From: Chiloscyllium plagiosum
Lineage: Eukaryota
Length of the DNA stretch: 64,000 nucleotides
Assembly: GCF_004010195.1 (NCBI RefSeq)
Contig: NC_057730.1
Coordinates: 32,334,271 to 32,398,270, forward strand
Direction of reading: 5' to 3'
Numbering within the stretch: the stretch's first letter is position 1; each line of letters opens with the position of its first letter. Positions 9,081-55,772 of the stretch are shown here, piece by piece. Made by a program: the position numbers and the translations under genes. The notes under the pieces are model-generated. The model was not told where the DNA came from. It was given only the letters and a program-made list of their open reading frames with translations, and made no database searches.

Positions 9081-9233
9081 TCAGAAATCTTGCAAGCCTG
9101 AAGCATTGTCTTCAATTTTCTCCACAATGAAAAAGGAAAGTGTGCCAATAAAACAGAATGTGGTCAGGATAAGGAGCTGTGATGACAGCACCAGATAATT
9201 GCTGTATCCGAAAGCCACTGCAGCAGAAATAGA
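9081..9233 (-). CDS. MFSD11: MFSD11-like transporter, coding exon 13 (last)
   Basis: SISAAVAFGYSNYLVLSSQLLILTTFCFIGTLSFFIVEKIEDNASGLQDF*; acceptor TTTCAG; resembles the MFSD11 C-terminus (SICAAVAFFYSNYL). Probably a paralogue rather than the 1:1 orthologue. Confidence 0.92.
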   Translation of the reverse strand, partial: SISAAVAFGYSNYLVLSSQLLILTTFCFIGTLSFFIVEKIEDNASGLQDF

Positions 9234-10124
9234 CTGAAAGCCAAGCAAAAAGAAAACAGTCACACAGAGCCAGTAACCATTTTCTCCATAAAGCTTCTGT
9301 ACACAAACATATGAAAAGGATCTGCCAAATTCCTCTCTGTCCATATGTGCTGCTGCCATTTCAAATAACCTAGCTAACATGCAAGAGACAGAAAAACCAG
9401 AGGTAATAAATGTGAGAAGAAATTTAAATAACTTGAGTGGAATTCCTTCCCTAATTTGCTAATCTGGGAGTAACCTGGAAACACGAGAGAAGCTACTCCT
9501 GTACCCATTAAAACATGCTTACTCAGAAAGATGTGCAGCTCCTGTTCAGGGAGTGCAGGGAGTCCATAATCAGCATAGTTTCACTCTGTTCCAAAACCGA
9601 ATAACTCTCACTGTCACTGAATACTTATTAACATGGTATCAAACTTCTTGACCAAAACAATTCCCACTTTTTCCTGTTCCTGCCCAGCTGGAAGTACCTT
9701 TCCTTCATCCTTTTAAAAGTCTAGAGCTGGGTTAGTTACTGACCATGGGCCTTTCCAAGGTCTTTGAAGTTACCGTACATGCAGAGGATTAAATGCATTA
9801 TACTATAATTGTACTGGATATTGGGGGTGTACCTTTGCTGTGTGTAACATAATGGTAGCTTTTGCCAACACTGGCAACTGTAAGCAACTACACATGTGCT
9901 CATTGGGGCATGCACAGTTTCAAGCACTGACATCATCATGTAGATTTTACATGTGGCCATGACCCCCTGAAATCTGTGCGTATGCAATTTAAAGCAGCAT
10001 GTAATGCGCAAGCATCAGTGTCAGCAAATGCTGTCTTTTGTAATTAAGTGTGATACACATTACATTGTAAATAAGTACAAAACAGCACCGGGAGGGTACA
10101 TGGGACCCACTATAAACCAACGGG

Positions 10125-10318
10125 AAATTGGCAGGGATCCCAGTTTGAAACAGCAGTGATGAAGGGAGATCTGGGTATAAGTCAGTGGGCAGAGAGTGGG
10201 GATCCCTTTGTAAAACAGCAGGAAGAGAGCAGGGATCTCAATATTAAAAATAAGAAGGTAGTGGGTATCCTGGTATAAAACAGCAGAAGGAGAGCAGCAA
10301 TCCTTGTTAAAAATAATA
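10125..10318. repeat. Degenerate ~32-bp minisatellite
   Basis: Recurrent GGGATCC...AAACAGCAG units in intron 12. Confidence 0.55.
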
Positions 10319-11137
10319 CACCTGTACACTTGGCATACTGTGTACAGCTACTGATGTGTTTGTCTTTTATAACTTTTTTGTGTTTCATATTATCAAGATA
10401 TCTTTTGGAAGAAATAAATTGCAATGATTCTTTAAGTATTTTTAAATTCTACTACACATTCTGGACACAATATCCAATTGGTTCTCACTTGTTTTCTAGT
10501 GAATACCACTGCATTATGGATACTGTGTGTATTGCAGGTCAGCATATGAATGTTGCAGACTGTGTTGTTCGTGGTACATTAAGAACATGGTTATAATACA
10601 TAGGTGAAGGGCAATATTTAATTAAGTGCTATATGTCACTATTTCTGAGCCAGGAAGTGTAGGTTCAAAGGTGTATAATCTCTGTGTGGATTGATTAGGA
10701 AATATCCTTAGAGCACTTCCAAAAAAGCAAGATTGTGCCATATCCACTGTCTGCTCAAGCCTTCCACAAGCAGTGGTACTGTGGGGGCTGGATTGCACAA
10801 TCACTCCTAAAGCACAAATTTAAATTTAAAATTTGCAAGCTTTGTTTTTGGGAGTTTTTTTCCTGTTATGGTGCTCTTTTTAATGGCTGTCTATTGTTTC
10901 ATTTGAATTAATATAAAGAAAGATTGCTTGACAATTTTATTTACGTTACCATTCCCCTTTTAAGGGGCTATTACTAGTTAGTTTTATTTAATTAGTTAAT
11001 TTGATTTTTTTGTTTGTTCATTTATTTGTATTATAAAGGAGACTTGACCCTTGAAGTGATCATTACTTAAATCAATTATTCATTTGTTAATTTCTTAAGT
11101 CACACATGTGTAAAGAGAGATGGCAGAATACTGTTTT

Positions 11138-11258
11138 AGGCAAAAGTGAGGACTGCAGATGCTAGAGATCAGAGTTGAGATTAGAATGGTGCTGGAAAAG
11201 CACAGCAGGTCAAGCAGCATCAGAGGAGCAGGAAAATTGACATTTTGGGCAAAAGCCC
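11138..11258 (-). mobile_element. Penelope-like pLTR tail (left half of a chimeric insertion)
   Basis: AAAGTGAGGACTGCAGATGCTAGAGATCAGAG...TTTTGGGCAAAAGCCC; same family as 1677-1801. Confidence 0.85.
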
Positions 11259-11327
11259 GGCTAGCTGAGTTGGTAGAGCATGCGACTCTTAATCTCAGGG
11301 TTGTGGATTCGAGCCTCCCGTTGGGTG
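11255..11327 (+). pseudogene. tRNA-Lys(CTT) pseudogene / retrocopy, full length 73 nt
   Basis: GCCCGGCTAGCTGAGTTGGTAGAGCATGCGACTCTTAATCTCAGGGTTGTGGATTCGAGCCTCCCGTTGGGTG; anticodon CTT at 11288-11290. About 8 differences from the common vertebrate tRNA-Lys-CTT (recalled), several breaking D, anticodon or T stems. Confidence 0.9.
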
Positions 11328-11625
11328 GAATACTGTTTTGGTCAGTTGGAAGCAGACATATGAATAGCTGCGCCGAAAGAAACAAACTGTCAAGAAAAAT
11401 ATTTCCATAGAGTTCCTACTTCACTATCTGGTATGGAGTCTATTTGTAACTTATTGTGATGTACAATGAATACTGTGTGTAATGGAAGTCCATGTAATTG
11501 TTTATTCGAAACTGCATGTACATCCTAAGTTAATGAGATGTTATTGGATACTGTGATTATAACTTAGCTCAGTGAGAATAAATTAAACACAGCATTGTTA
11601 GATTAGTTCTTTCTAATAACTGTAC

Positions 11626-11761
11626 CTGTACAAATTTGAAGATTGCAAAGGCTGGGCCACTTTGCTGTGGATACAGGATGCCAAGAATGCTATAGAGTTG
11701 AGTGTTGAAGCAACTGTCACCAAGGCCAAGGAGGAAGCTGCTTACCAATGCTGCAGAGGGA
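11626..11761 (-). CDS. MFSD11: MFSD11-like exon 12 (136 nt)
   Basis: PSAALVSSFLLGLGDSCFNTQLYSILGILYPQQSGPAFAIFKFVQ; CAG/GT sites; phase 2 to 0. Confidence 0.95.
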
Positions 11762-12205
11762 CTGGAAACACAATAACTGTTGTTGGTACTGTCCTGCCTG
11801 TGACACCAAGAATCATCATCAGCTATGAAACAATCTGATCCAGCTCTGAGTTCTTACGCTTCTATCACAATACTGTCTGTGCTCAATATCTGTCTAAACC
11901 CCAGTTCTGCTCAACACCTTGACTCTGCCCATAACCAATACTTCCAGACACCCCAAGTCTAGCTTATGTCCCAAAACAGCCCAAAACCTCTATTTTACCA
12001 TTCCCCCAATCTACCTGACTTCCCGATGCCAACTGGTACCCAAAATACTGCTCACAACTCGATCTCCAGTTGCTCAGAAGGTGATGCTGAGGCTTCACCT
12101 TGAACTGTTGGTTAATTGGCACAATGGTACAATTGTTACAATAATTGTATAACAATTGACAGTCTATTAGGCCAATTCAGAAGATAGTGAAGATTCAGTC
12201 ACATT

Positions 12206-14229
12206 GTCATAGAGATGTACAGCATGGAAACAGAGTCTTCGCCCAATTCGTCCATGCTGACCAAATATCCCAACCCAATCTAGTCCCACCTGCCAGCATC
12301 CAGCCATATCCATCCAAACCCTTCCTAATGAGAAAACCCTTCAAAATGTTGTAATCGTACTAGCCTCCACCACTTCCTCTGGCAGCCCATTTCACACACG
12401 CACCACCCTCAGCGAGAAATGGTTGCCCCTTAGGTCTCTTTTATATCTTTTCCCTCTCACTCTAAATCTATGCCCTCCAGTTCTGGACTTTCTCACCCCA
12501 GGAAAAAGACCTTTTCTATTTACCCTCTCCATGCCCCTCATGATTTTACAAACCTCTATAAGATCACCCCTCAGCCTCTGACGCTCCAGGGAAAACAGCC
12601 CCAGCCTGTTCAGCCTCTCCCTGTAGCTCAAATCCTCCAACCCTGGCAAAGTCCTTGTAAATCTTTTCTGAACCCTTTCAGTTTCACAACATCCTTCTGA
12701 TCGGAAGGAGACCAGAATTGCATGCAATATTCCAAAAATAGCCTAACCAATGTCCTGTACAGCTGCAACATGACTTCCTAACTCCTATACTCAATACTCT
12801 GACCAATAAAGGAAAGCATGCCAAATGCATTCTTCACTATCCTATCTGCTTGTGACTCTACTTTCAAGGAGCTCTTTGTTCAGCAACACTCCCTAGGACC
12901 TTAACATTAAGTGTATAAGTCCTGCTAAGATTTGCTTTCCCAAAAGGCAGCACCTCGCATTTATCTGAATTAAACTCCATCTGCCACTCCTCAGCCCATT
13001 GGCTCATCTGATCAAGATCCCATTGTAATCTGAGGTAACCTTCTTCGCTGTCTACTACCTCCAATTTTGGTGTCATCTGCAAACTTACTAACTGTACCTC
13101 TTATGCTCACATCTAAATCATTTATATAAATGACAAAAAGTAGAGGACCCAGCACCGATCCTTGTGGCACTCCACTGGTCACGGCCTCCAATCTGAAAAA
13201 CAACCGTCCACCACCACCCTCTGTCTTCTACCTTTGAGCCAGTTCTGTATCCAAATGGCTAGTTCTCCCTGTATTCCATGAGATCTAACCTTGCTAACCA
13301 GTATCCCATAGGGAACCTTGTTGAAAGCCTTACTGAAGTCCATATAGATCACATCTACCACTCTGCCCTCATCAATCCTCTTTGTTACTTCTTCAAAAAA
13401 TTCAATCAAGTTTGTGAGACATGATTTCCCACACACAAAGCCATGTTGACTATTCCTAATCAATCCTTGCCTTTCCAAATACGTGTACACCTTGTCCCTC
13501 AGGATTCCCTCCAACAACTTGCCTACCACCAATGTCAGGCTCACTGATCTATAGTTCCCTGGCTTGTCCTTACCACCTTTCTTAAAGAGTGGCACCACTT
13601 TAGCCAACCTCCAGTCATCTGGCGCTTCACCTGTGACTATCGATGATACAAATATCTCATCAAGAGGCCCAGCAATCACTTTTCTAGCTTCCCACAGGTA
13701 AGCTAGGTACATGTGATTAGGCCCTGGAGATTTATCCACCTTTATGCGTTTCAAGACATCCAGCACTTCCTCCTCTGTAATATGGACATTTTTCAAGATG
13801 TCACCATCTATTTCCCTACATTCTATATCTTCCATGTCCTTTTCCACAAGATGCAACACTGATGCAAAATACTCGTTTAGTATCTCCCCCATCTCCTGCG
13901 GCTCCTGTTGATCTTTGCGGGGCCCTATTCTCTCTCTCCCTACATAGCCTTTTGTCCTTAATACATTTGTAAAAACCCGTTGGATTCTCTTTAACTCTAT
14001 TTGCAAAGCTATCTCATGTCCCCTTTTTGCCCTCTTGATTTCCCTCCTACCGCCTTTATACTCTTCTAAGGATTCACTTGATCTATTCTGTCTATACCTG
14101 ACATACGCTTACTTCTTTTTATAATCAAACCCTCAATTTCTCTAGTCATGCAGCATTCTCTATACCTACCAGCCTCTCCTTTCACCCTTACAGGAATGTA
14201 TTGTCTCAGTACTCTCATTATCTCATTGC
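12206..14229 (-). mobile_element. CR1 LINE, ~2 kb 5'-truncated ORF2 (RT), frameshifted
   Basis: ORFs 13179-14006, 13012-13203, 12864-13082 and 12392-12727 give [36 protein letters not shown] and RGDLIEV. Confidence 0.97.
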
Positions 14230-14352
14230 TGTGGGTCGAGAGTTACATATAAGCCCAGACTGGTAAAGATAGCAGGCTTCCTTCCCTAAAGTGTGCCGGC
14301 TGGATTTTTGTCACATCCAGCAGTTTTGTATGGTCATTATTGCAGATATTAC

Positions 14353-14527
14353 CTGGGAGACAGATAGGGCTCATAGTGACCGCTGGTTGCACCACCTTTT
14401 GGTGCATCACCTGGGATTATAAGGAAGATCAGATAGAAAGCCAGAAAGTGCACAATGACTCCGAGAAGGATTGCTGAGGTACGTCGGAACTGATTATTGA
14501 TACACAGCAGCCCGAAGACCCCACCCC
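14353..14527 (-). CDS. MFSD11: MFSD11-like exon 11 (175 nt)
   Basis: GGVFGLLCINNQFRRTSAILLGVIVHFLAFYLIFLIIPGDAPKGGATSGHYEPYLSP; phase 1 to 2. Confidence 0.95.
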
Positions 14528-14685
14528 CTGTAACAGAGAGACACAGATTTAATATGTGATCACAACATTGACATCCAGCTGCTCACAAGTATTTCATTTC
14601 TAAACCGGCTAATTGAGCGGCTTAGTTAGTCACCCTATGTCCTACTAAGGTTTCATCAATACCCATTCTAGAGGGATACAGGGAA

Positions 14686-14709
14686 GTCTCTCTCTCTCTC
14701 TCTCTCTCT
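14686..14709. repeat. (CT)n microsatellite
   Basis: About 12 CT units. Confidence 0.9.
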
Positions 14710-14761
14710 GATTTTCAGCACCACAGACAACAACTTGCTCTCAACAAAAGAAAATGTGCTG

Positions 14762-15625
14762 ACCTTCATTTTGCATTTGTTCATGGGATGTGGATATTAC
14801 TGGCTGGGCCAGCATGTATAGTCCATCACTAGCTGCCCTTGAGAAGGTGGCGGAGAATTGTTTTCTTGAGCTGTTGCAGTACTTGGGGAGTAGGTACATT
14901 AACAATACTGTTAAAATAGCAGTTCCATGATCTTGACCCAGCAACAGCGAAGGAATGTATATAGTTCCAAATCAGGAAGGTGAGTGAATTGGAAAAGAAC
15001 TTGTTAATACATGGTGTTGCCCTTGATATTCTATATAGTAGAGATCGTGTGTTTGGAAGGTTTTCTTGAAAAGCATTGGTTGATTGCTGCAGGACAACTT
15101 GTAGATAATGCAAATAGCTACCACCGTTTGTCAGTGGTGAAGCAACTAAGTATAAATGATGGCAAATGGGGTGCAATGAAGAAACCTACTTTGTCATGCA
15201 TAGTATCGGTTTCTTGCATGTTATTGGACCTGCACTATCCAGGTAAGTGGAGAGTATTCCATCATGCACCTGACTTGTGCCTTGTAAATGTTGGACAGAC
15301 ACTGAGGAGAAAGAAAGTTATTCACCACAGAATTCTGAGCCTCCAACCTGTTCTTGTAGCTACTGCACTTGCGTGATTGATCCAGTTCAGTTCTGGTCAA
15401 TGGGAGTCCCCAGGATATTGATAATGAGGGATTCAGCAATGGAAATGCCATTAAATATCAAGGAGTGATTGTTGAGATGGTCATTGCCTTGCACTTGAAT
15501 GGAATAAATTATACTTGCCATTTATCAGCTCAAGCCTGGGTCTTGTCTTGATACATTTTGGGCATAGTCTGTTTCAACTGAGAGATCATGAATGGCAATG
15601 AACATTGTGCAATCATCAATGAACA
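14762..15625 (-). mobile_element. Old LINE (L2/CR1-clade) 3' portion
   Basis: YKAQVRCMMEYSPLTW motif. Same family as 23640-24640, 43400-43722 and 60930-61870. Confidence 0.7.
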
Positions 15626-16023
15626 TCTGTGAGAACTTGCAGCAATGAATGAGGAACTACTGTTAATCAGATTGTGGTCCATAACCCTGTGCTTTCCCAC
15701 TTTCTGACAGTTAATTCTAACCAAGGAAGTCATTTGGGCCATTGAACTGACAGGAACATGAAGAGACGAGTTAACCCATTAAGCCACTTTTCTGATATTT
15801 AGTTAGATCCAAGATGACCTTTAAGAGAGAGAATTCAGATTTTCACAACCTTTTCTGATTCCTGATTTCACAGAGAATGTAATGGTTTAGTTTTTATATT
15901 GTGCTACTTTGATCACCCTCACAGACTGTCTATACAACCTCTTACATTGCTCCCCAACATCTAACCTCCTCTGACCTCTCCATCCCACTCTCATGCACTC
16001 TTCCTGACATTTTTCATACTTAC

Positions 16024-16149
16024 CAAGAATCTCTCCAATGCCAATGAATATCCCCGAGAGACCAATCAGACCCTTGGCCATTGTCCCGAACTGTCTGGTG
16101 GCTCCAATGCATGTACCATACACCCCACTGTAAAAGGTCAGCACCAGGC
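16024..16149 (-). CDS. MFSD11: MFSD11-like exon 10 (126 nt)
   Basis: GLVLTFYSGVYGTCIGATRQFGTMAKGLIGLSGIFIGIGEIL; donor GTAAGT. Confidence 0.97.
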
Positions 16150-16657
16150 CTGGAACATGAAAGCCCCCAAAATAAAAGTTAATGAGGGACTGAGCAAATA
16201 AGATTCCAAGAGCAGGTACTGCACAAGTAAAGCTGCCTCTACACTGCCTTTTAAACATTATAATAATCTAATATTCGTCATCAGTTGTCCTTCCTGGTCC
16301 CTAATTGTTAATGTGGTTGAAGTATGGTGGATCCATGTACTTTAGGGACCGGATCAAACTGATATCAAAGTTAATCCCCTACAATGTCAGAGTGAGGGAT
16401 GCAGTGAGTGTCAGGGACTCGGGAGTGGGGGTGAATGTGAGGGGTGGTGGAAGTGAGGGCAGTGTAGGAGTAGATAAGAGATGGGGACAGTGTCAGGAAG
16501 AAGAGATCTGGGACACTATTGGGGTGGAGGAGACATCATCACCACTCCTCTGGTGGTACAGTTTAATTGTCAGATATCAATTCTCACAAAATGCAGTCTA
16601 CACACTCACTCCCTGCTATAAATTCACTCATCCATTGCCATACTCTCACTTACTTAC

Positions 16658-16723
16658 CACTATATGCAATTGGCATGCTCAGTAGCAACATGTTCTTTGT
16701 ACAAAACAACCTCAACATTGACC
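16658..16723 (-). CDS. MFSD11: MFSD11-like exon 9 (66 nt)
   Basis: RSMLRLFCTKNMLLLSMPIAYS; TTTTTCAG acceptor, GTAAGT donor; phase 1 to 1. Confidence 0.93.
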
Positions 16724-17183
16724 CTGAAAAAGAAATTGAACACAGTGAGAAGAGAGTGAATTTCTATATTAGCCATGAAAATTGAGGCTGAGAGGATTTC
16801 TCAGTTTCAGCCTTTGTATTCTGACCAATGATTGGGTCATTATACCAAGCACCAGAATCTCCAACATCACTTGTAGGGTCACGTCCCTGGGACATGTCTC
16901 TGACAGACCACATCATCTTCAGAGTCAAAGCAAAGGGTTTCCATCTCATTGAGTGTTCCAAGCCGCCCACATCTCAGAATACTCTTGTTACCCACAAACA
17001 CTATTCCACCCCATACTCTGCCCACTGAAACATTCAATCAATAATGCATAGATCCCATTGAAAACTCATTGTATTCCCCCAATTAATAATGTATCACCTT
17101 CCTCTTTTTAATCAATGACCAAGTATATCCCCAAATCACTAATCCACTGTACATCACAATCACTGTTCACCGTAGCCTATAAG

Positions 17184-17952
17184 ACATAAAACATAGAAAC
17201 AAAGGTAGACCATTCAGCCCATTGAGCCTGCTCTGCCATTTAATTGGAACATGACTGATCTGATAATCCACTTGCCTGTCTCCTCCATAGCCCTTGATTC
17301 CATTACTGATAAAACATCTGTCTTATCTCGACCTTGAAATTCTTAACAACCTGGCTTTTATAGCTTTCTGTACTAAAGAATTCCATACATTCACTACCTT
17401 CTGAAAAGAAAAAAATTCCATCTCATCTTTTTCTTAAATGGGCAATCCCTTACTCTGAGATTATGCCCTCTGGTCTTAGACTCTCCCATAACGGGAAACA
17501 ACCTCTCAGGCATCTATTCTGTCAAGTGCCCTGTGTTTCTTTGAGGTCACTTCTCATTCTTCTAAGCTCCAATATGTACAGGCCCAACTTCCTCAACTTC
17601 TATACATGAGAAAGTCCCTCCATACCCAGGATCAACCTAGAGAACCTTGTCTAGACTGCTTCTAATACTAGGCCAGCCAACCAAAACTGTTCGTACTATT
17701 GTAGGTGTCAACCGACTAGTTCCTTACATAGTTTTAGCAAGACCTGTTTATTTTTGCACTCCATTCCCTTTGAAATAAAGGCCATCAGTCGATTTGCTTT
17801 CTGTATTATCCACTAAACTTGTATGCCAGCTTTGTGATTTATGTATGAGGACACGCAAATCTGGCTATACTGTAGCTTTCTGCAGTCTTTCTCCATTTAA
17901 ATAATATTCAGCTCCTCTATTCTGTCTGCCAAAATGTATTACCTCAAATAAC
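17184..17952 (-). mobile_element. Old CR1 LINE 3' fragment
   Basis: EVIHFGRQNRGAEYYLNGERL; CATAAGACATA-type tail. Confidence 0.8.
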
Positions 17953-17954
17953 TG

Positions 17955-18285
17955 ACCCACTGTACAGCTCCAATCATGAACCCACATTGCATTTCCAATT
18001 GCTAACCCACCAAAGCTCTCAAACACATATACTTTACTCCAATCACTAACCCTCATACATTGCAAATCACTAACTGACCATACATACCAATCACTAACTC
18101 ACCTTAACCCGCCATTAACTAACCCACTCTACCCTCCAGTCTTTATCCCACCATATCCCTCAAGCATTAGTCCACCATACCCCTAAATTACTAATCTACT
18201 ATATCTTTCAATCACTCCTCAAGCACTAACCCGCTATGCCCCTCAAACACTATACCATTTTCTCCTGACTATGCCCACCACTAAA
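17955..18285. repeat. Low-complexity degenerate CACTAACCCAC-like repeat
   Basis: Repeated CACTAAC / CCAC / CCCTCA words, C/A-rich. Confidence 0.5.
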
Positions 18286-18378
18286 ATGTGTCAGTTCAGA
18301 ACCATATCTCATTTGAGAGCATTTAACAGGAACAGAAGTCCAGAATGAGTTAAGCATTTGTGAAGAGGAACAACTTAC

Positions 18379-18428
18379 TGAACTCTGATGTGATCTGATC
18401 CAGGGTCGACATCGCCTTCTCCTTAAAC
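18379..18428 (-). CDS. MFSD11: MFSD11-like exon 8 (50 nt)
   Basis: FKEKAMSTLDQITSEF; TAG acceptor, GTAAGT donor; the phase 2-to-1 change exactly bridges exons 7 and 9. Confidence 0.82.
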
Positions 18429-18489
18429 CTAGTCAACATTGAAACAAATCAGGTCTTTGTAAAGACTAATATTACATTCAAAAGTAAAG

Positions 18490-18890
18490 GAAGATTTGCA
18501 TTATACAGCACCTTCCACAACATCTGGATGTCCCAAAGTGCTTTGCAGCCAGCTACAGTCATTGTTGTAATGTAGGAAATGTGACATGGTGGCCACATCC
18601 AAAAACACATATGTGTTGTTCACAAAGATAATCTGTTTGAGGTGTTAGCTGAACAATAAACATGGATTAGGACAACAGGACAACACCCTTGTGCATGTCC
18701 GAAACAATGCCTCAGGATTCCTAACATCCCGAAATAAGATGAATGGGTGGATGGCATTTAAATTTGCCTTGCTCCTTAAAATTACACTGGACTGTCAGTC
18801 TGGACTTTGTGCTCAAGTCTTTAAAGTTGGACTTGAACCCAGATCTTCTGACTGTGAGACAGCAGCGCTATCCACAGAGCGATGTCTGGC
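18490..18890 (-). mobile_element. Deu-core SINE (SacSINE1/AmnSINE1-like), degenerate
   Basis: Reverse complement has TTTCCTACATTACAACAATGACT...AAAGCACTTTGGGACATCC; related to 45809-46100. Confidence 0.6.
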
Positions 18891-19118
18891 ATAAACGTGC
18901 TTTTAACAGATCATTTTTCCAATGTGTTTTTTTGGGGTTTTACACATTATTTATTTCAATATAGTGAGATCCTGATCTCAGCCTGGGTAATTGGGAACAG
19001 GGTAAGAGACTTTTTAGTGGCCAGTTTTAGAATTGCATGGCATTTATCTTCCTGAATTCAGAACCATCCATGATATATGGAGATGAGCCAATGCACTGGT
19101 TTTCACTTGAGTACTTAC

Positions 19119-19257
19119 AGCCTAGAATCAAGAAGTAGAGGATCATTGATCTCCGAGTGGTGGTGCAAGTGTTTGATGTTTTTCAGCGCAAGTAGGATGA
19201 CTGTCCCAACAAGAGAGATCACGAACAATACGATAAACAAAGTACTCCTGTCATGGT
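19119..19257 (-). CDS. MFSD11: MFSD11-like exon 7 (139 nt)
   Basis: DHDRSTLFIVLFVISLVGTVILLALKNIKHLHHHSEINDPLLLDSR; donor GTAAGT. Confidence 0.92.
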
Positions 19258-19443
19258 CTGATAAGTCAAAAAGAAAAATAAACTTGCATTTCCAAATTTT
19301 CCTTCATAATCTCAAGACATCTCAAAGTTCGAGATGTATAATAACATCTCCCTGAACAGTTTGATTATAAAATATCTACTTCACTAGTCACCGCTTGCCG
19401 CTCATAAAAAAAGAACAGTGCAGAATTTTAGGGCTGTTGTGGT

Positions 19444-19663
19444 TGTAGTGATAGTAACAAAGTCAGCCAAGTGAATTTCAAAGAATATGAGTTCCCTGAT
19501 TGGCGCTGTTAATCTGATCCAATCAGAAAGCCTTGGCTGACTGATAAGAATAGGAGGGTCAGGCATTCTATTCACTATGAGAGCTGGTTTGTTATCAAGG
19601 GCTCCCCAAGTGTAAAACAAGGGTGACTTGGTACTGGGATACCAGCTTCTTGGAGTTATTTCA
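19444..19663 (+). mobile_element. Probable solo LTR inserted in the head of a short SINE
   Basis: TG...CA termini (TGTAGTGATAGTAACA...GAGTTATTTCA), internal CCAATCA, flanked by GTGGT / GTGGC. Confidence 0.6.
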
Positions 19664-19770
19664 GTGGCGCAGTGGTAGTGTTCCTATTTCTGAGCGAGGA
19701 GGCCTGGATTCAAGTTCCACCTGCTCCGGGGGTGTGTCATTACATCTCTGAACAGATTGATTAGGAAAAA
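19664..19770 (+). mobile_element. Short (~110-bp) tRNA-headed SINE family
   Basis: GTGGCGCAGTGGTAGTG...GGATTCAAGTTCCACC...CATCTCTGAACAGATTGATTAG. Other copies near 10625-10705, 23072-23182, 26905-27020 and 58760-58840. Confidence 0.65.
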
Positions 19771-25011: not shown

Positions 25012-25070
25012 CTGAGATCAATGTTATGTCTCTCCATTGGAGGTAAACATAGAGGTTTCCGAACAACATG
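25012..25070 (-). CDS. MFSD11: MFSD11-like exon 6 (59 nt)
   Basis: MLFGNLYVYLQWRDITLIS; TTTTACAG / GTAAAG. Confidence 0.93.
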
Positions 25071-25519: not shown

Positions 25520-25616
25520 CTGGATTGTAACAGAGCCCAGAAGATCCCAGTATTCCTATTGATAGTGGTGCAGTCAGAGTTCAAGATAAGGAAGTTTCCC
25601 TGAGCAGTCCACAGCA
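25520..25616 (-). CDS. MFSD11: MFSD11-like exon 5 (97 nt)
   Basis: VLWTAQGNFLILNSDCTTINRNTGIFWALLQS (UNC93-family LWTAQG motif). Confidence 0.97.
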
Positions 25617-26355: not shown

Positions 26356-26416
26356 CAATAGGAGATACAGAGAGACTAGGATTTGGAAATAAAGGTTCAG
26401 GATGCATTCTACTCAC

Positions 26417-26496
26417 CAGCTGCAGCAAATCCAATGAAGATGGACGTAATATAGAATGACCAAGTCATTGGCTTACTGAATGAAACCACGTAACCG
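26417..26496 (-). CDS. MFSD11: MFSD11-like exon 4 (80 nt)
   Basis: GYVVSFSKPMTWSFYITSIFIGFAAA; TTTTTCTCAG / GTGAGT. Confidence 0.95.
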
Positions 26497-28823
26497 CTGA
26501 GAAAAACAAAAAAAACACAACTACAATAAAAGGCAGGAACAAGGTCATCACTCTGAGCTTTACTGCAGATGCTTGTGGTACAGATGATCATAGAAACAAG
26601 AGGAGTGCATTGAGAATTCTCCCTCAAAATTCTCTTTTCCCCCAAATAGTGCAATGCCATAATTTATTTTCAAAAGCACCTATTTATAACCAGCCTGTAC
26701 TGGCTTCAACCTAGCACAATATAAGGATGTAAACTGCCAACTGAGCAACATTTCAGTTCCTTCAAGGGGTAAATGGGAATAATTGAAGTATTTTATCATT
26801 CACAATAAAATTTTTAAAAATGACCAGAATTAGTTTTGGATTTGATTGAACTAAGGACAGCTGAACACAATTTCCCACAATCCCCTAATCCCAACATTGG
26901 AAGGGACTCTTCTAGTACAGTGGACATGTCATGACGTCTGAGGCAAGAGTCCTGGGTTCAAATCCCACCTGCTCCAGAGGTGTGTAATAACATCTCTGAA
27001 CAGGTTGATTAGAAAATATCTGGAAAGCAGACCGAGAAGGGCTCTTGTGGCACAGTGGTATCCATCAATGTTCTTGATGCCTTTGCCTTACAGTTAGCTG
27101 GCCACCACGGGGAATGCAATGATCTGTTTCACCCTCCAACTTTATTTTGATTTATCCCCTTCCATCTCCCTACCCCTCCCTCACATTTGATGGTGTGCAT
27201 TGCCTGTAACAGACTTTGCATGTAAATGTCTAATTGGCTACATGGGTGATTTACTAGTGGCATTTAAAAGTTAAAAAGAAAAACAATTCACTGTGATTTT
27301 ATGATGGGAAAGCCATTCGGTTATAGGTAAGAGCACTTCCAGATTTACAAAAAGCAGGTCCAGAGATGAGTCTGCAGAACTTTCTAACCCAGGCAGGGAC
27401 TAACCTATGTATGTCAGAGTAATGGCGCTATTTTGGTGTTCAACAATAATTGATGTTCCTTTCCAGTCAAATTTCCTGAGTTATTAAACTCTGCAACATA
27501 AAATGATTGTCCACAGATTCTGGAACAAAACTTTTTCTCTGCTATGGTTCAGAATCTGGTGTCCAATCCACCCATGGGTTGGGGCTGTCTCCATGAACTT
27601 GGTGGTTAGGCCTTACCTGTAGCAGCACAGCTAAGTGAACAAACCAACAAAAAGGAGGCCAGATAATGGCACACTTACAGCAAAGTTGAAGGCCACTCAG
27701 CCTGTTGCACCTGTGCTGGTGGTAGAGCCCTTTCTTATTTTTCACTATTTAAATTTTATTCTTTTATCAATTTTGAATTATGAGGTAGAAATCACTGATG
27801 GACACTGAGTCAACTTAGATTTAAAAAAAGAATGGATCAGGAAGTCTTTGTTTATTATTGAGGCCAGGCCTGGAGGCTAATTGCAGGCTGAGCCTTGATT
27901 AAACACAGTGACCCGCCAGGAAAAGCAGATAACAGAAAATTGCTACCAACAAGGTCAGTACTTGGAAATTAGTTCCAGTAAGTCTGAAAGAGTCGCCATG
28001 TTCAATTAGATGGCAGCTGTTGAAAGGTGACTGAGATGTCAGGGAGTGTCTAACAGGGTTGAACCAGAATTAGTTGTTCTTTGGAACAACGTCATCTCAG
28101 AGGTTCTGGGCTATCACTGAGACAGCATGAAGATTTGAAAGCTCCCTGTCTACTCTGATATATCAATTTCCAGAAGCCTAAATAGAGGAGGAATTGCTGC
28201 CTTTGCCTGGGTGAACTGAGAACCCTGATCAACATTTCAGGAAAGAAAGATCAAGCAGTCCAGATTTATACCTGTGAACAATGCATTGTGAAGGACATTT
28301 ATGTAATCTGGCTAGTTTTGTTATTTCTTTTATTTATCTCTCAAATGTGTTTCTGTCTTTTGTGTGAATGAAACTGAAAACAAATGTTATGGGTTTAAAG
28401 CATAGAAGTTAATCAGCTTACTGTGCTGTCCAATTTTCTTTCAGCTAATGTTAGTTGGGGTTTCTGGACATTAATTCCTCACAAAGTCTAGTGTTGGTAA
28501 TGCAAAAGTCTGGTTAGGAACCATTGTAGTGACTATTTGGGGGTCTCTGATGGTTTAATTTGATGGTGTTATGAATACAGGGGTCAAAAGACTGCTTTGG
28601 TTCAGCTGTCTGTCTCTGTATGGTAGTACTGGCTCTTTAAAACTCTATCCAAATATAATCCCATTCTTTCTCATCATTGAGTGGATATAAGATTCAAAAG
28701 AACAAAGGATTGAAAGTTCCCAGGGTACATACTAGGAATATCAACTGAATTGATGGGGCCAAGTTTAACTTGAGTAGATATCAGCAGTATAAGAGATAAA
28801 AACCTACCAGGGTCCAGCATTAC

Positions 28824-28931
28824 CTGTAAACAACTCCACTGAAAACCATTGACATCTTCGGTCCAACAACTGCTACCACAGATGGTGCAATGAGATTAGA
28901 AGCTGAAAATACTCCATAAATAATGGCAAGG
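28824..28931 (-). CDS. MFSD11: MFSD11-like exon 3 (108 nt)
   Basis: LAIIYGVFSASNLIAPSVVAVVGPKMSMVFSGVVY; CCAG / GTAATG. Confidence 0.97.
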
Positions 28932-30127
28932 CTGGCAAAAGAAACATAAGGAAGTTTGATGCTTGGGCAGGCCATTTAATGTTCCATTCTTGCTCTTCCC
29001 ACTAGTACTGGCAACAACATTACATTCTCCCCTACCCGCTGGATCTCTTTCCACAACTGATGTGAAATTTACCCCATCGTGGGTGTCTGTAGAAAATGTT
29101 TCTTTTGAAACAGAAGTATGATGTGCTGCACATTAGGTTATACATTGGACAGATAGAAGGTGCTCATAATAATCAGGATGATTCAAACTGGCAGTAAGAC
29201 ACAGACAAGGCATGTTCATAGATTATACTGGGGAGCAGTTGGAAGCTAAGAAGTACATTTTTCAATCCCAAATCACACTAAGTATTGCTCAGACATCTTC
29301 TCTGTGCTCACCTACACTGGCTTCTGGTCCTACAATACCTAAATGTTAAAGTTCTCATTCTTGTTTTCAAATTGCCCTATAGCCTCATCCCTCCCTATCT
29401 GTAATCTTCTCTAGCTGTGCGTCCTTACGTGTTTTTTGCTAACTTCCAAATCAGGCATCTTGTTCATCCTGATATTAATTACTCCACCATTGGAGGCAAT
29501 GTGCCTGGTGTACTAAGCTTTGGAATTCCTTGTCTTAGCTTCTTTATTTCTCTATCTCCTTTGGGATGCTTCTTGAAACACATCTCTGACCAAACTTCTG
29601 GTCCCCTGTCCTAAATATCTCTTACTTTGTCTTGATGTCAAATTTTGTCTTGTTTGCCTTCGGACACTTTACCACATTAAATGTTCACTCTGGTCCCATC
29701 ATATGACCTCACAATGGCAAGGAATTATTCTGCTATGGATGAGGCTTATGGCTGAAATCAAGGTGCACATCCTGGGGAACATCAGATTTCCAGCACACCT
29801 CAGAGAACAGAGATCAGTGTGCCACACAAGCATTAATGCCAACCAAATCATGTGAAATTTGTCTTGTGTCTTCAGCAAAATTGAACTCTCTCACTTGAGG
29901 TGAGTTTGGTGATATGGGGTTTATTGCGTGGCATCCCTACGGCCTTGCTCCCTCCACCCTGATGAAGCCTGTGGACGTTTGGCAATTAATCAAATAATAT
30001 CGACCCCACTAAATCACCACCTGGAAGCATAGTGTAATGATTCAGAGATAGGTTGTGAGGTACCTCAGTCCACATATAATACTATAGACTGTTTCAGCAG
30101 TCAGTAAAGAGTCAAGATTTCTGGTAC

Positions 30128-30183
30128 CTGTTGTAACCGCTGCCGGAGAAACTGCTGTTGGTCAAACTCCTTATTACTGTTTG
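30128..30183 (-). CDS. MFSD11: MFSD11-like exon 2 (56 nt)
   Basis: QTVIRSLTNSSFSGSGYN; TTTTCAG / GTACCA. Confidence 0.93.
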
Positions 30184-31478
30184 CTGAAAAATAACAGTGA
30201 AAGGGTTTACATTTATAAATTTATCATAAATATCCACAACTGAAGCATATTCACATTACACTTCTTTGGTACACAAGGGCCAACCATTCCCCACATTGCT
30301 CGACCCCACAAGCAGGAATGAGATGTGTTTATTTGTTTTTAATAGCCTTGGTTGTGAATTGGATGTTGAATTACAGAATCAGGGAGGAGTCCCCTTTCAG
30401 TACTGAACTTTGGATCTTTAACATCTGCCCCAATTAGTAGAATGGACATTGGTTTAATGTTTAATGTTTTATCTGAAAGATGCCCTTATAACAGTACTGC
30501 ACCCTCTTAATACTCCAATGAAGAATCACCTTAAATTATGTGCTCAAAGTATGGCCTGTGGCCATATTATAGTTAGTAATGAATAAAGAAATAAAATATT
30601 TGGAAGAGGTAAATGTGAAAGTTAATAGATTCTAACTTTAGGTAAGGCTGACTCTAATGGCATGAATCAAAGACTGTTCACGGTAAAGTAGGATCATCTG
30701 TTCATGGGTGTAATGCCACTAATCAGTGGTAAGTGTTCAAAAAGTAATTTAATGTGATACAAAATCAATTTATTCCTTTAAAGGGCAGGGTTTCTATTTG
30801 CCTAAAATACAGACATAGACAACTAAAGAGGTGAGAAAACATTAAAAACTTCATTGCTGGTTCGCACCATGCTGGTGAACAGAAAGCATTTCCAAAAGAA
30901 ACAACAAAAGGACAAAACAGAAAGTCGAAGCTATGAAAGGAGGGTATTAAAATAAGCTTAAACTTTTACAATTACTTTGGGATAAGAAAGTGGTTGGTGT
31001 GTGTGCTGCCATCCATATCTTCTAATTGTGCGTTCTTTCCTTAAGGGTTACATGGTCTACTGTGTGCAATGGTAGCTACTTTCTAGTTCAATGGGAAGAG
31101 GCTTGAGGTGTAAACAATATGTGGTTTATTCCACCTCTGCAAATATATACAGGTCATAAGAATAGGTTCTACATCACTACAAAGACTGTTGGGAGGACAT
31201 GGCCTTAAGTCTGTCTCCCATGTGATCTTACTTCCCGTCCTATAAAGTCCTTATGATATTATTGCAGTGGGTGATGCTTACTTCACTGGGTCAAGTATTA
31301 ACCCTTTTGGATCCTTCTCAACGCTCAACAGTTGGAGTAATATGGTCCCCTTGAAAATATATAGGTGATATTGTGAACAAAAATAAGCAAATGACGGACA
31401 TACTGAATAGTTACTCTGTGTTAGGATTTACAGTAGAATGAAGGGACAGTATGCCAGACAGAATGGCACCAGACCCAG

Positions 31479-31582
31479 CCAGCATGGACTCAGATAGCAG
31501 CCCAGGTCAATGTCATTTCATCAAACAAGAGGAATGCACAGCAGAGCTTCAAGAAGGTAAGTGATCTTCTCAGCTTTGCAAG
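31479..31582 (+). mobile_element. Harbinger-type Myb/SANT-like exon relic
   Basis: In-frame PAWTQIAAQVNVISSNKRNAQQSFKKVSDLLSFA followed by AG|GTAAGT; resembles the W..IA..VN.....R...Q..KK..DL pattern. Confidence 0.6.
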
Positions 31583-32439
31583 GTAAGTGTCACTACCTTC
31601 TCTCTACTACCTCACACTTACTCTAACTCTGTCACTGCACACAACTCCCACCACTATCATTATCCACTGACCAACCATTGAAGTCAGATTGGTGTTGACT
31701 TGCCAAAACACTCCTTCCTGCAGTATCCCATGCTCTCCCATGCTGAAATATTTTTATTCATGTGATGAGAACATCGCTGGCTAGGTCAGTATTTATTGTT
31801 CGTTCCAAATTGCCCAGGGGGCAGTTAAGAGTCAACTACTGTGCTGTGGGTCTGGAGTCACATGTAAACCAGACTAGGTGAGGATGGCATTTTCCTTCCC
31901 TAAAGGACATTAGTGAACCAGATGGGTTTTCCAACAATTGCCAATAGTTTCATGGTCATCATTAAACACTTAATTCCAGATTTTTATTGAATTCAAATTC
32001 TATAACCATCTGCCCTGGGTCGATTCAAATACCCCCCACTAGGCCGTCACGTCTCCAATGTTATATTTTGGAACTGGCTTTAAATATAGTCTTTATTCCC
32101 TCAGTGTCACAGCATAATGCATCCCATCCCCAGTCTTGAGTTTCCCATTTTCCCAAACACAGCATGGATTGCTCCCTGATAATCCACCCTTGATTTTTAC
32201 CGCCCAAACCTTCAGGTGATCATGGCCAACCCCAGAATGATTTGCAAGGACAGCCCTGCATAAGCACAGTCTAGTTTCCTGACTGATTTAGTAATAATCC
32301 CAGACTGGTTGGACTTGACCTACAGGATTGACCATGGAACAGTCTCTGGACTAGAGGGACATGGATCCTGGGATCCTGATTGTATCAAATGCCTGACTGA
32401 TCGTGGCTCACCCCTTGCATTGAGATCAGACAATACACT

Positions 32440-33372
32440 TGACAAAATGTGGTGGCACGCCCTAACCATAGATCACCTTCAATCCTCGAACAAAATGGAT
32501 GAACTTAAAGCTAGGTTTACCTTCCGGAAGGGACTGAAAGACTGCCGTGTATTCTGTTTTACAGAGACATGGCTCACTCCTGCTATACCTGACTGTGCCT
32601 TAAAACCTGAAGGTTTCTCTATACTGTATATCACGTGGACTGCACAGCATTCGCAGGGTAGGGCAAGGGGCAATGGAGTCTGCCTCCTAATCAACACCCC
32701 CCGGCGCTCACTTACTGCACATCAGATCTAGAGTATCTAACAGTGAAATGCAGTCACTACTATCTGCCACACGAGTTCACCTCCGCCATCCTAAAAGCAC
32801 AGTAACAGACTTCATTAGCAATTGTATAGAGGACTACGTGCCAAAGAAGTCAATCTGTGTGTTCTCCAACTGGAAACAATGGATGAACCAGGAAATCTAT
32901 TGTCTACTGAAGATCAGGCATGTGGCATTCAGATGACCTGGACCTTTACAGGAAATCCAAATACGAGCTCTGCAGGGCCATTAGAGATGCCAAGAGCCAA
33001 TGCTGGGCTAAGTTAGAGACACAAACTAGCCACACACCCGCCATCTGTGGCAAGGTCTACACGACACAATGGGCTACAAAATGAAGCAGAACAGAATAGT
33101 GAACAAAAGTACATCCCTCCCTGATGTGCTCAGTGCTTTTTACACTCAGTTCGAACAGAAAGGCAGTGAAATGTTGTTACCTGACCCGACAGCCTCAGAC
33201 ACACCTATTCTCTCGGTCACCATGACAAAAGTCAAATTGGCCTTCTTGAAAGTGAATCCATGGAAAACGATGAAGTCCCCAACTGTGCACTCAGATCCTG
33301 TGCAAACCAACTGGGAAGAGTATTCGCTGACATCTTTAACCTTTCCTTGCTACAATCTGAAGTCCTCACCTG
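32440..33372 (+). mobile_element. Rex1/Babar-type LINE fragment (APE endonuclease to RT start), broken
   Basis: FCFTETWLTPAIPD, GNGVCLLIN, KQWMN, LRSCANQLGRVFADIFNLSL. Confidence 0.8.
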
Positions 33373-33399
33373 CCCGGGATTCATTAGCCTTACTCGTAA

Positions 33400-33865
33400 G
33401 ACGCCTCGCATTGAAATAAATGCAGTTGAATTCATCAGAATTACCTTGTTATCTGTCTTGCTCTTGTATGCCTTTTCCAATTAACTTGCTATTTTCGGAT
33501 TCCGAAGCACCTTCATCTGTCTTTCAACTTTTACTGCAACTGAGGACCCCCAAGTCTCCTAAAATAGAACTAGCAAATTTCCCTCCCAGAATACTGGTCC
33601 CTTTCCAGTTCAGGTGAAACCCATCCCTTTTGAATAGGTCTTCTCTGCCCCAGAAGAAGTCCCAATGATCCAAAAATCTGAATCCTTGCACATTGCACCA
33701 CCTATTCAACCATTGATTTATTTGCCCTATGCTGTTATTCCTATTCTCACCAGAATGCGACACCAGGAGTAAACCAGAGATTACTACCTTTGAGATTCTG
33801 CTTAACCTTCTACCTAACCTCTTCTATTCACTCTGCTAAATCTTAACCCTTTCCCTAACAATGCC
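33400..33865 (-). mobile_element. CR1 ORF1 esterase (SGNH-like) fragment
   Basis: NQWLNRWCNVQGFRFLDHWDFFWGREDLFKRDGFHLNWKGTSILGG. Confidence 0.8.
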
Positions 33866-34329
33866 ATTCCTCCAGTGTGTACCAACAAGTTCTTATCAGA
33901 TCTGTTTGAAGTCTGTCCCCTTTAGCATGTTAGTAGTGACACACTACACGATGGAGTGTCTCTTCAATGTGAAAATGAAACTTTCTTTCCAGAATGCTGG
34001 TGTACTGGTCACTCCTACCAATACTGTTAATGAGGGATGCATCTGTAACAGGTAGATCAGGGAGTATGAGTTAAAGTAGATTTATCACCTGACACAGATT
34101 CGGTCTAGCAGCTATGTCTTGTAGGACACGGCTAGCTTGGTCAATAGTGGTGCTACTGAGCCACTCTTTGTGAAGGACCTTGAAGTCCACCACTCAGAGT
34201 ACATTCTGTGCCCTTGCTATCTTCACCTGTAGTGTTCAAAATGGAGGAGTACTGATTTATCAGCTGACTGTGATACACATGGCTTACTATACATCAGTGC
34301 ACACAATATATAACACAGTCAGGTTCTTA

Positions 34330-34788
34330 TAGAGTCATAGTCATTGACACATACAGCATGAAACATACTCTTCGGTCCAACCTGTGCATGCCAAACATAA
34401 TCCTAAACTAAACTAGTGCTACCTGCCTGCTCCTGGCTTATATTCCTCCAAGCCTTTCCTATTCTTGTACTTATCTAAATGTCTTTTAAATGTTGTAACT
34501 GTGCCCACATCCACCACTTTCTCAGAAGTTCATTCCACAAGTGAACCCTCTGTGTAAAAAATTTGCCCCTCGTGTCCTTTTTAAAACTCTCTCCTCTCAT
34601 CTTAAAAATAAGCCCCCACAAGACTTGAAATCCCCCATCCAAGGAAAAAGACACCTACCATTAACCCTACCTATACCCTCATGATTTTATAAACCTCTAT
34701 AAGGTCACCATACAATTTCCAATGCTCAAGGGAAAAAAGTCCCAGCCTTTCTTTATAACTCAAACCTTTCATACCCAGCAACATCCAT
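34330..34788 (-). mobile_element. CR1 LINE 3' end
   Basis: TAGAGTCATAG tail; similar to 12206-12650. Confidence 0.8.
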
Positions 34789-36913
34789 CTTTGTGATTCA
34801 AATCTGTTTTTGAAATTTGTTTACAACACTAATTATTTACAATGCAAGAATATCACAGAATTATGCACATTCTGGGTTCTAAGTTTACTGCGTTACAGCA
34901 AATTACACACATATAGATAATTGACTACACTGACTCCATTGCATTGAGAGAATTACTGCAGGAGAGCAGAACATCCACATGTACAAACCTGATTGGTTTG
35001 AATCTGTGCCATAAGACAACAAGTAGTGCCCCAAGTCGTACTGATCTTTTTTACCTTCAACAATTCTGACATTCAATATGGTTCTTCTGATTCACTATTT
35101 CAAACTAAGCCTGAATTGTGGAACACATTCCATGGGCTGAAAGGTCATAGTCATAGTCATGTCTTCTTCTGTTCTAGTACTAAGAACTAATTTATGGCCT
35201 CTTGTCATTAATCAGTGGAATTAATGTTTCAACATATAATTTTAAGCTTTCCCAGAATATGGAATACTTGTTGGATGTTCACACACTCTGTGTACTCCTT
35301 TGACTACAGACTTAAATTTCAGCTTTCATGTAGTAATTCTTAATTCTCAACCTTGCCATCATCCTGATGCATCTACGCTGTAGCTATCATACAGAGAAGG
35401 AAAGAGAAAAAAAGTGAGAGAGAGAGATGAAACATGTTCATAAGCAAAGATATAATGTTAAGTTTATCGAAACACTGTGTGCTTGTAGTTATGAGTAGGG
35501 ACTTGAGTGACTGAAACAATCTGTAATTGAGCAGAGAGGGGATTTTTTGAAGTTTGTATTGGTATAGAAAGATTTGAAGGTACAAGGCTATAGGAAGAGA
35601 GCTAGGCAATTGGATTGCTTTTGGTTGTTTGAGCAGTGAGCCAGCATAGATATGACTGGCCTACTCTGTGCTGTAAACATAATATGGTTCTGAACAGCAA
35701 GTTAAATTGAGATGTGCCCTGTGACTCCTGTTCAAATGATGTCATGATCATGGGTTGCTGGTGGGAGATAATGTTATTTAAAGAACAGAGTTTCTGTTGT
35801 GTCCCAGTCATGAATTGATGAGTAAATAGCAACAGTAGCCAATTATTTCAGTTTCTTCTGTAAGGTCTGTTTGTCCCCTCAATTCCAGATGGCTTCTTGC
35901 CATCACTCCTCCAGCATTTCATTCTTTAGAAATGGGATGCACAGTGAATGTTTGCTGACTGTTTGACTATGGTGGGCATAAACCTCTTCCCTGTTAGAAG
36001 CCTGAGGATTCCCTTGTCCTCACCCACCAATCTACAGCGTTTTTGTCACCTCCAGCATATGTCATCAGTAAACACGTCTTCCATCCCTTATCAACACCCT
36101 GTGTTCACTTCTCAGTCACCCCCAACATCCTTCTTCCCATAGTAATTTCCCATGGAAGCACAGGAGAAGCAATCTGTCCTGTTCTGTATGTTTTTACCAG
36201 TGAAGATCACAACCCACTTTCCAGGTGAAAAACAGATTTACTTAAACTTTTTTTCTAATCTAACGTATTGTATTTACTGCTCACAATACTTTGGGAAAAG
36301 TAAGAGCAGGTTGGGTGTTCAGTCAGTTATTCAGGCCGCAAAGATGACACCAGAGTATCCAGCAACCTGTAATTTTAATTCTCTGATTCATTCCTACTCC
36401 GACCTCTCCTACGCGGATCCAACCAAACTCAAATAAACTCCACGAACCTCGATTAGGAACGTTTTGCAGTCTTTCCGGGTCCAACACTAAGTCCAACAGT
36501 TTCAAATCACAAGCTCTGCCCCTTGTGTTTTGGACAGCAACTGTTGGTGGTAAATTCTACCCTGTCCATTCAAACTTAAACAATTACATCTATTATTTAT
36601 TTGTTAACATCTCTCTTTGCACTGTAATATCTTCGTTTTTAATTGTTCCTCATTCCACAGACCTTGCAGCTTGTTCTTTAAACCTCGCCTTTCACCGCTT
36701 TGTTTATAAACTATTACATCTCAAATCATTTTAAGGAAACTTTACAAACCTGAAACTTTAAGTCCGTTTCTCTCTCCACAGATGGTGAACATTTCTGCCC
36801 GTATTTCAAGTTTCCAGCACCGAAAACAAAGTACTTAGCCCTTGTAATAGAGCTTAGCAATGGATTCGCTCTCCCTGGGATTCGCTGCCCATGTCAACTG
36901 GGCTAACACTCAC

Positions 36914-37003
36914 CTCTATGTTCCCGCAGGTAGTGAAGGCGGTGAAGATGAGCATGAAGCCGATACCCAGGAGGTAAACATTGATCACCTTGCGATCGCC
37001 CAT
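36914..37003 (-). CDS. MFSD11: MFSD11-like first coding exon (90 nt CDS)
   Basis: MGDRKVINVYLLGIGFMLIFTAFTTCGNIE; donor GAG|GTGAGT. The 13 exons sum to 1335 nt (444 aa + stop) with no frameshift. Confidence 0.93.
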
Positions 37004-55699: not shown

Positions 55700-55772
55700 G
55701 TAAAGTGTTTTGTACAAAAAAAAACTACTGGATAACGTGAGAAGGAGGCTTTTTAGCTCCTTGAGGCTGTAG

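Follow-up and report, generated by a model that had tools for sequence, protein, structure and literature searches.

The 64,000-nucleotide stretch of the Chiloscyllium plagiosum genome analysed here (the window; NC_057730.1, positions 32,334,271 to 32,398,270) carries a second MFSD11 gene, which we call MFSD11-B. It is intact and spliced, and it occurs in cartilaginous fishes, ray-finned fishes, the coelacanth and newts. On balance we think it probable that this gene arose by whole-genome duplication and encodes a 12-helix major facilitator superfamily (MFS) carrier of endosomes or lysosomes, with a predicted sorting signal unlike that of its sister copy and an altered predicted substrate site. 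MFSD11-B is a real ohnologue, apparently undescribed, of far wider distribution than sharks, and annotated automatically under the orthologue's name. A sequence-only reading of the window had proposed an uncharacterised second transporter retained in sharks; the gene is indeed present in sharks but is not specific to them, and database annotation already covers it, without marking it as a separate paralogue.

MFSD11-B comprises 13 coding exons on the minus strand, running from 37003 to 9081 (1,335 nt, encoding 444 aa plus the stop). The reading frame has no internal stops and no frameshifts, and GT-AG ends are found at 12/12 introns, so that the complete open reading frame described by the sequence-only reading is borne out, with transcript contigs following the model. 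The predicted product is identical, in every letter, to RefSeq XP_043567624.1 (P0305, 'UNC93-like protein MFSD11 isoform X2'), and a protein 98.9% identical to it (P0002) matches the UNC-93 profile (PF05978) with an E-value of 3e-104 and 349.5 bits, against a curated cut-off of 22.9. The parts of the gene are as follows, transmembrane helices being abbreviated TM and the untranslated region UTR.

36914..37003, minus strand: exon 1, with the ATG at 37003; TM1, with Thr24 replacing the family Gln; gene model and transcript contigs
30128..30183, minus strand: exon 2; gene model and transcript contigs
28824..28931, minus strand: exon 3; gene model and transcript contigs
26417..26496, minus strand: exon 4; gene model and transcript contigs
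25520..25616, minus strand: exon 5; gene model and transcript contigs
25012..25070, minus strand: exon 6; gene model and transcript contigs
19119..19257, minus strand: exon 7; TM6 and the disordered central loop with a dileucine-like stretch; gene model and X1 contig
18379..18428, minus strand: exon 8; 50 nt, on which the frame depends; length fits the gap in the X1 contig
16658..16723, minus strand: exon 9; gene model and full-protein genome search
16024..16149, minus strand: exon 10; TM7 (Val251 replacing Glu) and TM8; gene model and UNC-93 profile search
14353..14527, minus strand: exon 11; clade-specific FRRTS loop, TM8-TM9; gene model and X1 contig
11626..11761, minus strand: exon 12; one annotated isoform has its acceptor 36 nt upstream, at 11797; gene model and X1 contig
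9081..9233, minus strand: exon 13, coding part and stop; C-terminus without YxxΦ; gene model and X1 contig
8339..9080, minus strand: 3' UTR, at least to the extent reached by contigs

A 12-exon model omitting the 50-nt exon 8 was rejected, as it ran into a stop.

Contigs from two runs, X1 and X2, follow this structure. Both runs are presumed, as a guess only, to be RNA, and neither gives a tissue or an expression level. Introns 1-5 are absent from the 2,069-nt contig of X1, with junctions at the modelled CT..AC ends, and the contig further carries exons 7, 11, 12 and 13 together with 742 nt of 3' UTR; its listed pieces omit exons 8-10, whose combined length agrees with the 241 letters that separate exons 11 and 7. 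In the 2,093-nt contig of X2, exons 1-6 are joined at the modelled splice sites. Because joined exons do not arise from genomic DNA, these contigs support splicing of MFSD11-B. A raw single-cell run (X18) yielded no matching reads in the approximately 6% of the run searched, which has no bearing on expression.

Alternative forms have also been annotated. One uses the acceptor 36 nt upstream of exon 12 (11797-11762), adding 12 aa before TM10, and others (P0001, P0308) skip exon 10 (16149-16024), which removes much of TM7-8; the transcript contigs show the 444-aa form only. A 1,936-nt contig of run X6, which bears a different organism code, spans most of intron 12 (window 9207-11160), which points to a retained intron or a different 3' end.

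The chromosome that carries the window gene, C21, is not the only one with an MFSD11 gene. A genome-wide search with the UNC-93 profile found exons at two loci only, the window and a locus on chromosome C24, and a search with the full protein returned the same two loci with one extra match, on C9, at E 0.06. The C24 copy, MFSD11-A, has 13 exons and encodes 451 aa (its 38-nt exon 8 was chosen by frame and similarity, without a transcript check). It is arranged head-to-head with SRSF2 on the opposite strand, 947 nt separating its start from the SRSF2 start codon, and JMJD6 lies about 54 kb away, so that the SRSF2-linked copy for which the sequence-only reading had called does exist. The two proteins are 55.7% identical, and their genes share intron phase at 12/12 introns and alignment column at 11/12, the remaining intron falling in an unalignable loop. 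The intron positions had been said to be kept, and the N-terminus, central loop and C-terminus to be diverged; the alignment agrees on both counts. The window gene has none of the hallmarks of the SRSF2-linked clade, which we call clade A: it lies outside that clade in the tree, is not beside SRSF2 or JMJD6, and lacks a C-terminal YxxΦ, in keeping with the earlier claim that it is not the SRSF2-linked orthologue.

Relatives of the window gene, clade B, proved to be numerous. A search with exon 11 returned 19 proteins, 12 from sharks and rays (71-100% identity) and 7 of the human type, and over ten species of sharks and rays have the gene in intact form. Among the best 120 of 1,553 matches to the full-length protein, which were the ones examined, are proteins of rays, bichir, sturgeon, gar, coelacanth and many teleosts, with no tetrapod, chimaera or lungfish among the named rows, some rows being unnamed. 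A clade-B profile outscored a clade-A profile for 120/120 of these, a comparison that is partly circular, the profiles having been built from 11 and 8 rows of our own, respectively; the Thr marker in TM1 was concordant with the clade-B assignment in 120/121. An exhaustive search of 50% cluster representatives (best 150 of 2,648) added a newt cluster, with Pleurodeles and Lissotriton. Representative accessions of clade B are XP_039632145.1 (Polypterus), XP_006637134.1 (gar), XP_006013427.1 (Latimeria), XP_026208310.1 (Anabas) and XP_069065775.1 (Pleurodeles). Carp, goldfish and other cyprinids have MFSD11-B, with no record of zebrafish itself among them, and Anabas has both copies, whose records suggest one shared chromosome. 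No chimaera B protein was seen among the named rows of the best 120 of 1,553, though a high rank would be expected, and loss or poor annotation in holocephalans is possible.

The main tree (32 rows hand-picked from about 300 proteins, LG+G4) was rooted on nine non-vertebrate or unnamed outgroup rows, made up of a coral, arthropods and unnamed rows, in which neither amphioxus nor tunicate was recognised. Clade B, with the window gene, sharks, rays, coelacanth, newts and ray-finned fishes, has support of 100/100; clade A, with the C24 copy, teleost A copies, frogs and mammals, has 96/90; and the two together are separated from the outgroup at 100/100. A 60-row quick mixture-model tree recovered the A/B split too. 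Both clades contain sharks, ray-finned fishes and tetrapods, which places the duplication after the split from invertebrates and before that between sharks and bony fishes. The stem branch of B is fourfold longer than that of A (0.29 vs 0.07 substitutions per site), and the elasmobranch B stem adds a further 0.27. Within B the position of the newts is weakly supported and their branch is long (0.66). The newt copies (P0131, P0293) also show changes at otherwise fixed sites, with Ser or Ala at position 24 and Arg189 replaced by Gln, which points to fast evolution or to relaxed selection, perhaps as a prelude to loss as in other tetrapods.

No amniote or frog B copies were seen among the best 120 of 1,553 matches and the best 150 of 2,648, and a region search with a newt protein, which returned 11 matches and missed known B copies, gives no evidence of absence. 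We consider it likely that MFSD11-B was lost in amniotes. The loss in mammals suggested by the sequence-only reading is not contradicted by these protein comparisons.

Chromosomes C21 and C24 are paralogous well beyond MFSD11. Copies of GGA, SoxE and TNRC6 are found on C21, C24 and C39, and copies of iRhom and ERN on C21 and C24, so that C21 pairs with C24 in 5/5 of the multi-copy families tried, all taken from the known human paralogon. By their N-termini, the SoxE genes are presumably Sox8-like on C21, Sox9-like on C24 and Sox10-like on C39. That five further families pair C21 with C24 makes a genome-duplication origin likely. At 28 Mb, C39 is half as large as C21 (60 Mb) and C24 (56 Mb), which fits a scheme in which C21 and C24 are two alpha (gene-rich) copies split at the first round of vertebrate genome duplication (1R) and C39 is a beta copy. 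We take the paralogon to be linked to chordate linkage group H. The general scheme of the first and second rounds (1R and 2R) is that of PMC7269912, which, in the part available, assigns the beta copy of this linkage group arbitrarily, and PMC10525774, likewise seen in part, leaves 1R versus 2R for this pair unsettled. The sequence-only reading had named a 2R paralogon on the strength of the GGA pair among others; the paralogy stands for GGA and extends to iRhom, SoxE, ERN and TNRC6, while the round may instead be 1R. Our view is that the MFSD11 A/B pair very probably stems from a vertebrate genome doubling, and more likely from 1R than from 2R.

Two other origins were weighed against a genome doubling. 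A segmental or single-gene duplication in the jawed-vertebrate stem, with the paralogous chromosomes coincidental, has in its favour that the direct neighbours differ (SRSF2 and JMJD6 vs EARS2 and UBFD1) and that, of the C24 partners tested, even the nearest to copy A are as distant as 1.7 Mb (TNRC6) and 6.2 Mb (GGA), and the tree contains no cyclostome rows that might speak against it. This account is at odds with the C21-C24 pairing of every family tested, with GGA, ERN and TNRC6 all lying within 0.35 Mb of MFSD11-B on C21, and with introns fully conserved between the copies, and we regard it as very unlikely. The notion that the window gene is a recent shark duplicate, a translocated orthologue, a pseudogene or an assembly artefact can be practically dismissed: no point was found in its favour, the gene is intact in over ten species of sharks and rays and represented by spliced contigs, and the genome has a separate SRSF2-linked copy. 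Forcing all copies of cartilaginous fishes together cost 112 log-likelihood units and gave p 3e-5 in the approximately unbiased (AU) test, and a shark-only duplication is therefore rejected.

Turning to the protein, the AlphaFold2 model of the window product predicts a 12-helix MFS bundle (predicted local distance difference test 83.8, predicted template modelling score 0.84) in which the central loop, residues 193-215, is disordered. The top Foldseek match was UNC93B1 in complex with TLR3 (7c76; E 1e-8, template modelling score 0.68), and VIA-align placed the carriers DgoT, FLVCR2 and SPNS2 on top, with Z 34-37 (maximum 36.6), and UNC93B1 at Z 29.8; MFS carriers as a group came out at Z 30-37. 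A sequence search of the PDB gave no matches at E 1, and searches of the ESM Atlas gave family members only.

Divergence between A and B is concentrated in the termini and the central loop, where the two clades also differ in candidate sorting motifs; the counts that follow take in isoforms and close kin. A C-terminal YxxΦ is present in 20/20 A rows and in none of the B rows (0/15 elasmobranch, 0/109 bony-fish and newt; 0/124 in all). It occurs in 7/91 outgroup rows, for which shuffling gave a mean of 2.1 and a maximum of 5. Conversely, the central loop carries [DE]xxxL[LI] in 109/109 bony-fish and newt B rows, 0/16 A rows, 0/16 elasmobranch B rows and 5/45 outgroup rows; an acidic residue stands at -5 of the loop LL in 11/16 elasmobranch B rows, the window protein among them. 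Within the helices, position 24 of TM1 is Gln in 16/16 A and 26/45 outgroup rows and Thr in 122/125 B rows, and the outcome of a helical-face test, which assigned Thr24 to the polar side of TM1 (7 degrees), supports its facing a polar interior. At position 251 of TM7, Glu is universal among A rows and among bony-fish and newt B rows; 16/16 elasmobranch B rows have Val or Met there and have also lost Asn327. Every A and B row retains E288, Q117 and Q142 of the polar core, D364, Q370 and Q394 are invariant in full-length B rows, and the TM8-TM9 loop reads FRRT[ST] or LRRTT in 119/121 B rows.

YxxΦ and the acidic dileucine are two standard signals bound by adaptor protein (AP) complexes. Tagged human MFSD11 is lysosomal according to the part of PMC12130315 available. 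We slightly favour a scheme, drawn from these motif distributions, in which B would be sorted to endolysosomes by [DE]xxxL[LI] in its cytosolic central loop, with A using the C-terminal YxxΦ. It seems to us an even bet that B works by alternating access as an exporter of a small polar solute, its specificity having been changed by the Gln-to-Thr replacement in TM1. More tentatively, shark and ray B proteins, which are without the TM7 Glu and the acidic residue at -4 of the dileucine, might be coupled or sorted unlike those of bony fishes. A bolder version, which we offer as a long shot, is that A and B split address labels (tail tyrosine vs loop dileucine) and substrates after an early doubling, and that shark and ray B, on losing the TM7 Glu and the canonical dileucine, was retuned to an uncoupled, possibly plasma-membrane carrier of organic osmolytes tied to urea and trimethylamine N-oxide physiology. 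If this were true, the A/B pair would amount to a mutagenesis series made by nature, with which human MFSD11 might be de-orphaned.

Two accounts of MFSD11-B compete with that of a sorted carrier. It may be a non-transporting membrane partner, a chaperone or regulator like UNC93B1 for Toll-like receptors (TLRs): the UNC93B1-TLR3 complex is its best Foldseek match, the family roles summarised in the available part of PMC8621210 include that of UNC-93/UNC93A, thought to serve potassium channels, and the loss of the TM1 Gln, along with the TM7 Glu and Asn327 in elasmobranchs, could mean relaxed transport. The invariance in B of Q117, Q142 and E288, and in full-length B of D364, Q370 and Q394, argues otherwise, as does the higher VIA-align ranking of carriers over UNC93B1, though a shared fold shows no function; we think this account unlikely. 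Distinctly less likely still is plain redundancy, with B backing up A at the same location and for the same substrate and its differences being neutral drift. The two are 55-60% identical with one fold, and B appears dispensable in amniotes and perhaps in frogs, but its retention in lineages from sharks to teleosts and newts, its clade-fixed changes (Thr24 and the FRRT[ST]/LRRTT loop) and a stem four times as long as that of A speak against this.

Several points weigh against the interpretation of MFSD11-B as a differently sorted carrier born of a genome doubling. The five paralogon families were not chosen blind, and the named rows contained no recognisable lamprey, hagfish, amphioxus, chimaera or lungfish. 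The absence of B from amniotes and frogs is weak, resting as it does on the best 120 of 1,553 and the best 150 of 2,648 matches and on one search of low sensitivity. The motif and residue counts are not independent, each pattern probably having a single origin, and YxxΦ is a weak candidate for an ancestral signal given that only 7/91 outgroup rows have it. The window protein itself has neither canonical motif, its loop reading E-x-x-x-x-L-L, and the helical-face test put Val251 on neither the polar nor the conserved face of TM7, the control Gln117 failing too. MFSD11 is still described as an orphan in the portion of PMC9333335 available, and UNC93B1, the closest solved relative, is a TLR chaperone and not a proven carrier in PMC8621210.

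The surroundings of MFSD11-B were examined over 100 kb on each side and by family searches. The gene order on C21 is COG7-GGA-EARS2-MFSD11-B-UBFD1-ERN-PALB2-TNRC6, the GGA gene having VHS, GAT and ear domains, and the flanking of MFSD11-B by EARS2 exon 1 and UBFD1, as first read from the window, is upheld by the exon itself and by domain matches.

330..483, minus strand: EARS2 coding exon 1, ending in PSPTG; downstream exons match PF00749 (tRNA-synt_1c) and, weakly, PF19269 (anticodon-binding)
53592..63671 (approximate ends), plus strand: UBFD1 coding exons in the window, with ubiquitin and PH_UBFD1_C matches; the last exon lies past the window

Overall the UBFD1 exons extend over about 53.6-66 kb in window coordinates. 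By human gene order, we take the C21 block to be the human 16p12 block with its ERN2-PALB2 part locally inverted; human EARS2 and UBFD1 are direct head-to-head neighbours, and the human order runs UBFD1-NDUFAB1-PALB2-DCTN5-PLK1-ERN2. At 32.44-32.67 Mb of C21, UBFD1 is followed directly by ERN, with PALB2 further out, inverted relative to that order. Decayed fragments of long interspersed nuclear elements and Penelope-like reverse transcriptases (12200-14130, 44300-45700 and other places in the window) fill the introns of MFSD11-B, and an assembly gap of 659 N lies at about 44.5-45.2 kb, between MFSD11-B and UBFD1. A tRNA-like element in intron 12 (11255-11327, plus strand) scores 32.7 bits, barely over the Rfam cut-off, with no call by ARAGORN, and is probably a tRNA-Lys-derived pseudogene inserted into a repeat.

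In the literature, no title or abstract was found that describes a second vertebrate MFSD11, subscription papers not being covered. In the parts available, PMC4896477 reports never more than one MFSD11 copy outside C. elegans, zebrafish, stickleback and Tetraodon included, and PMC5627054 (supplement 2) gives one MFSD11 each in zebrafish, chicken and mouse. One supplement of a 2026 jawed-vertebrate ohnologue database (PMC13450315, also available in part) does not contain 'MFSD11', and its tables may list the pair; Ensembl gene trees, too, may show it. The records named 'UNC93-like protein MFSD11' from sharks, rays, Polypterus, gar, Latimeria, Anabas and Pleurodeles belong to orthologues of the window gene, share their product name with clade A and were in no case seen flagged as a distinct paralogue. 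As many fish 'MFSD11' records are B, fish expression or knockout data so named may concern the wrong gene.

Compared with MFSD11 of clade A (the human, SRSF2-linked gene; Transporter Classification 2.A.1.58.3, PF05978), MFSD11-B shares the 12-TM MFS fold, as predicted for it, a polar core, 13 coding exons, identical intron phases and 55-58% identity. It differs in forming its own clade on its own chromosome, in an N-terminus two residues shorter, in having no C-terminal YxxΦ, in the loop dileucine of its bony-fish and newt members, in the TM1 change from Gln to Thr and the loop change from GRNP to RRTS, and in being unseen in amniotes. The comparison points to particular residues in human MFSD11, namely the TM1 Gln, the TM7 Glu and the YRSI-type motif at the C-terminus, which is likely to act as a lysosomal signal. 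UNC93B1 (7c76, 7c77) and UNC93A have the Pfam family in common with B but are only 15% identical to it, have roles as TLR chaperone or channel regulator, and are far older paralogues. A parallel in evolutionary history is offered by Ras-dva1 and Ras-dva2, which, in the part of PMC6115384 available, are ohnologues kept in fishes and amphibians and gone in amniotes, as MFSD11-B appears to be. They belong to another gene family, and mfsd11 serves there as a synteny marker only, with ern2 by Ras-dva1 and mfsd11, tnrc6c and rhbdf2 by Ras-dva2, apparently in the paralogon of MFSD11-B. Ohnologues of this sort, retained by fishes and amphibians but apparently missing from amniotes, form a class that is known already, and MFSD11-B is one more case of it.

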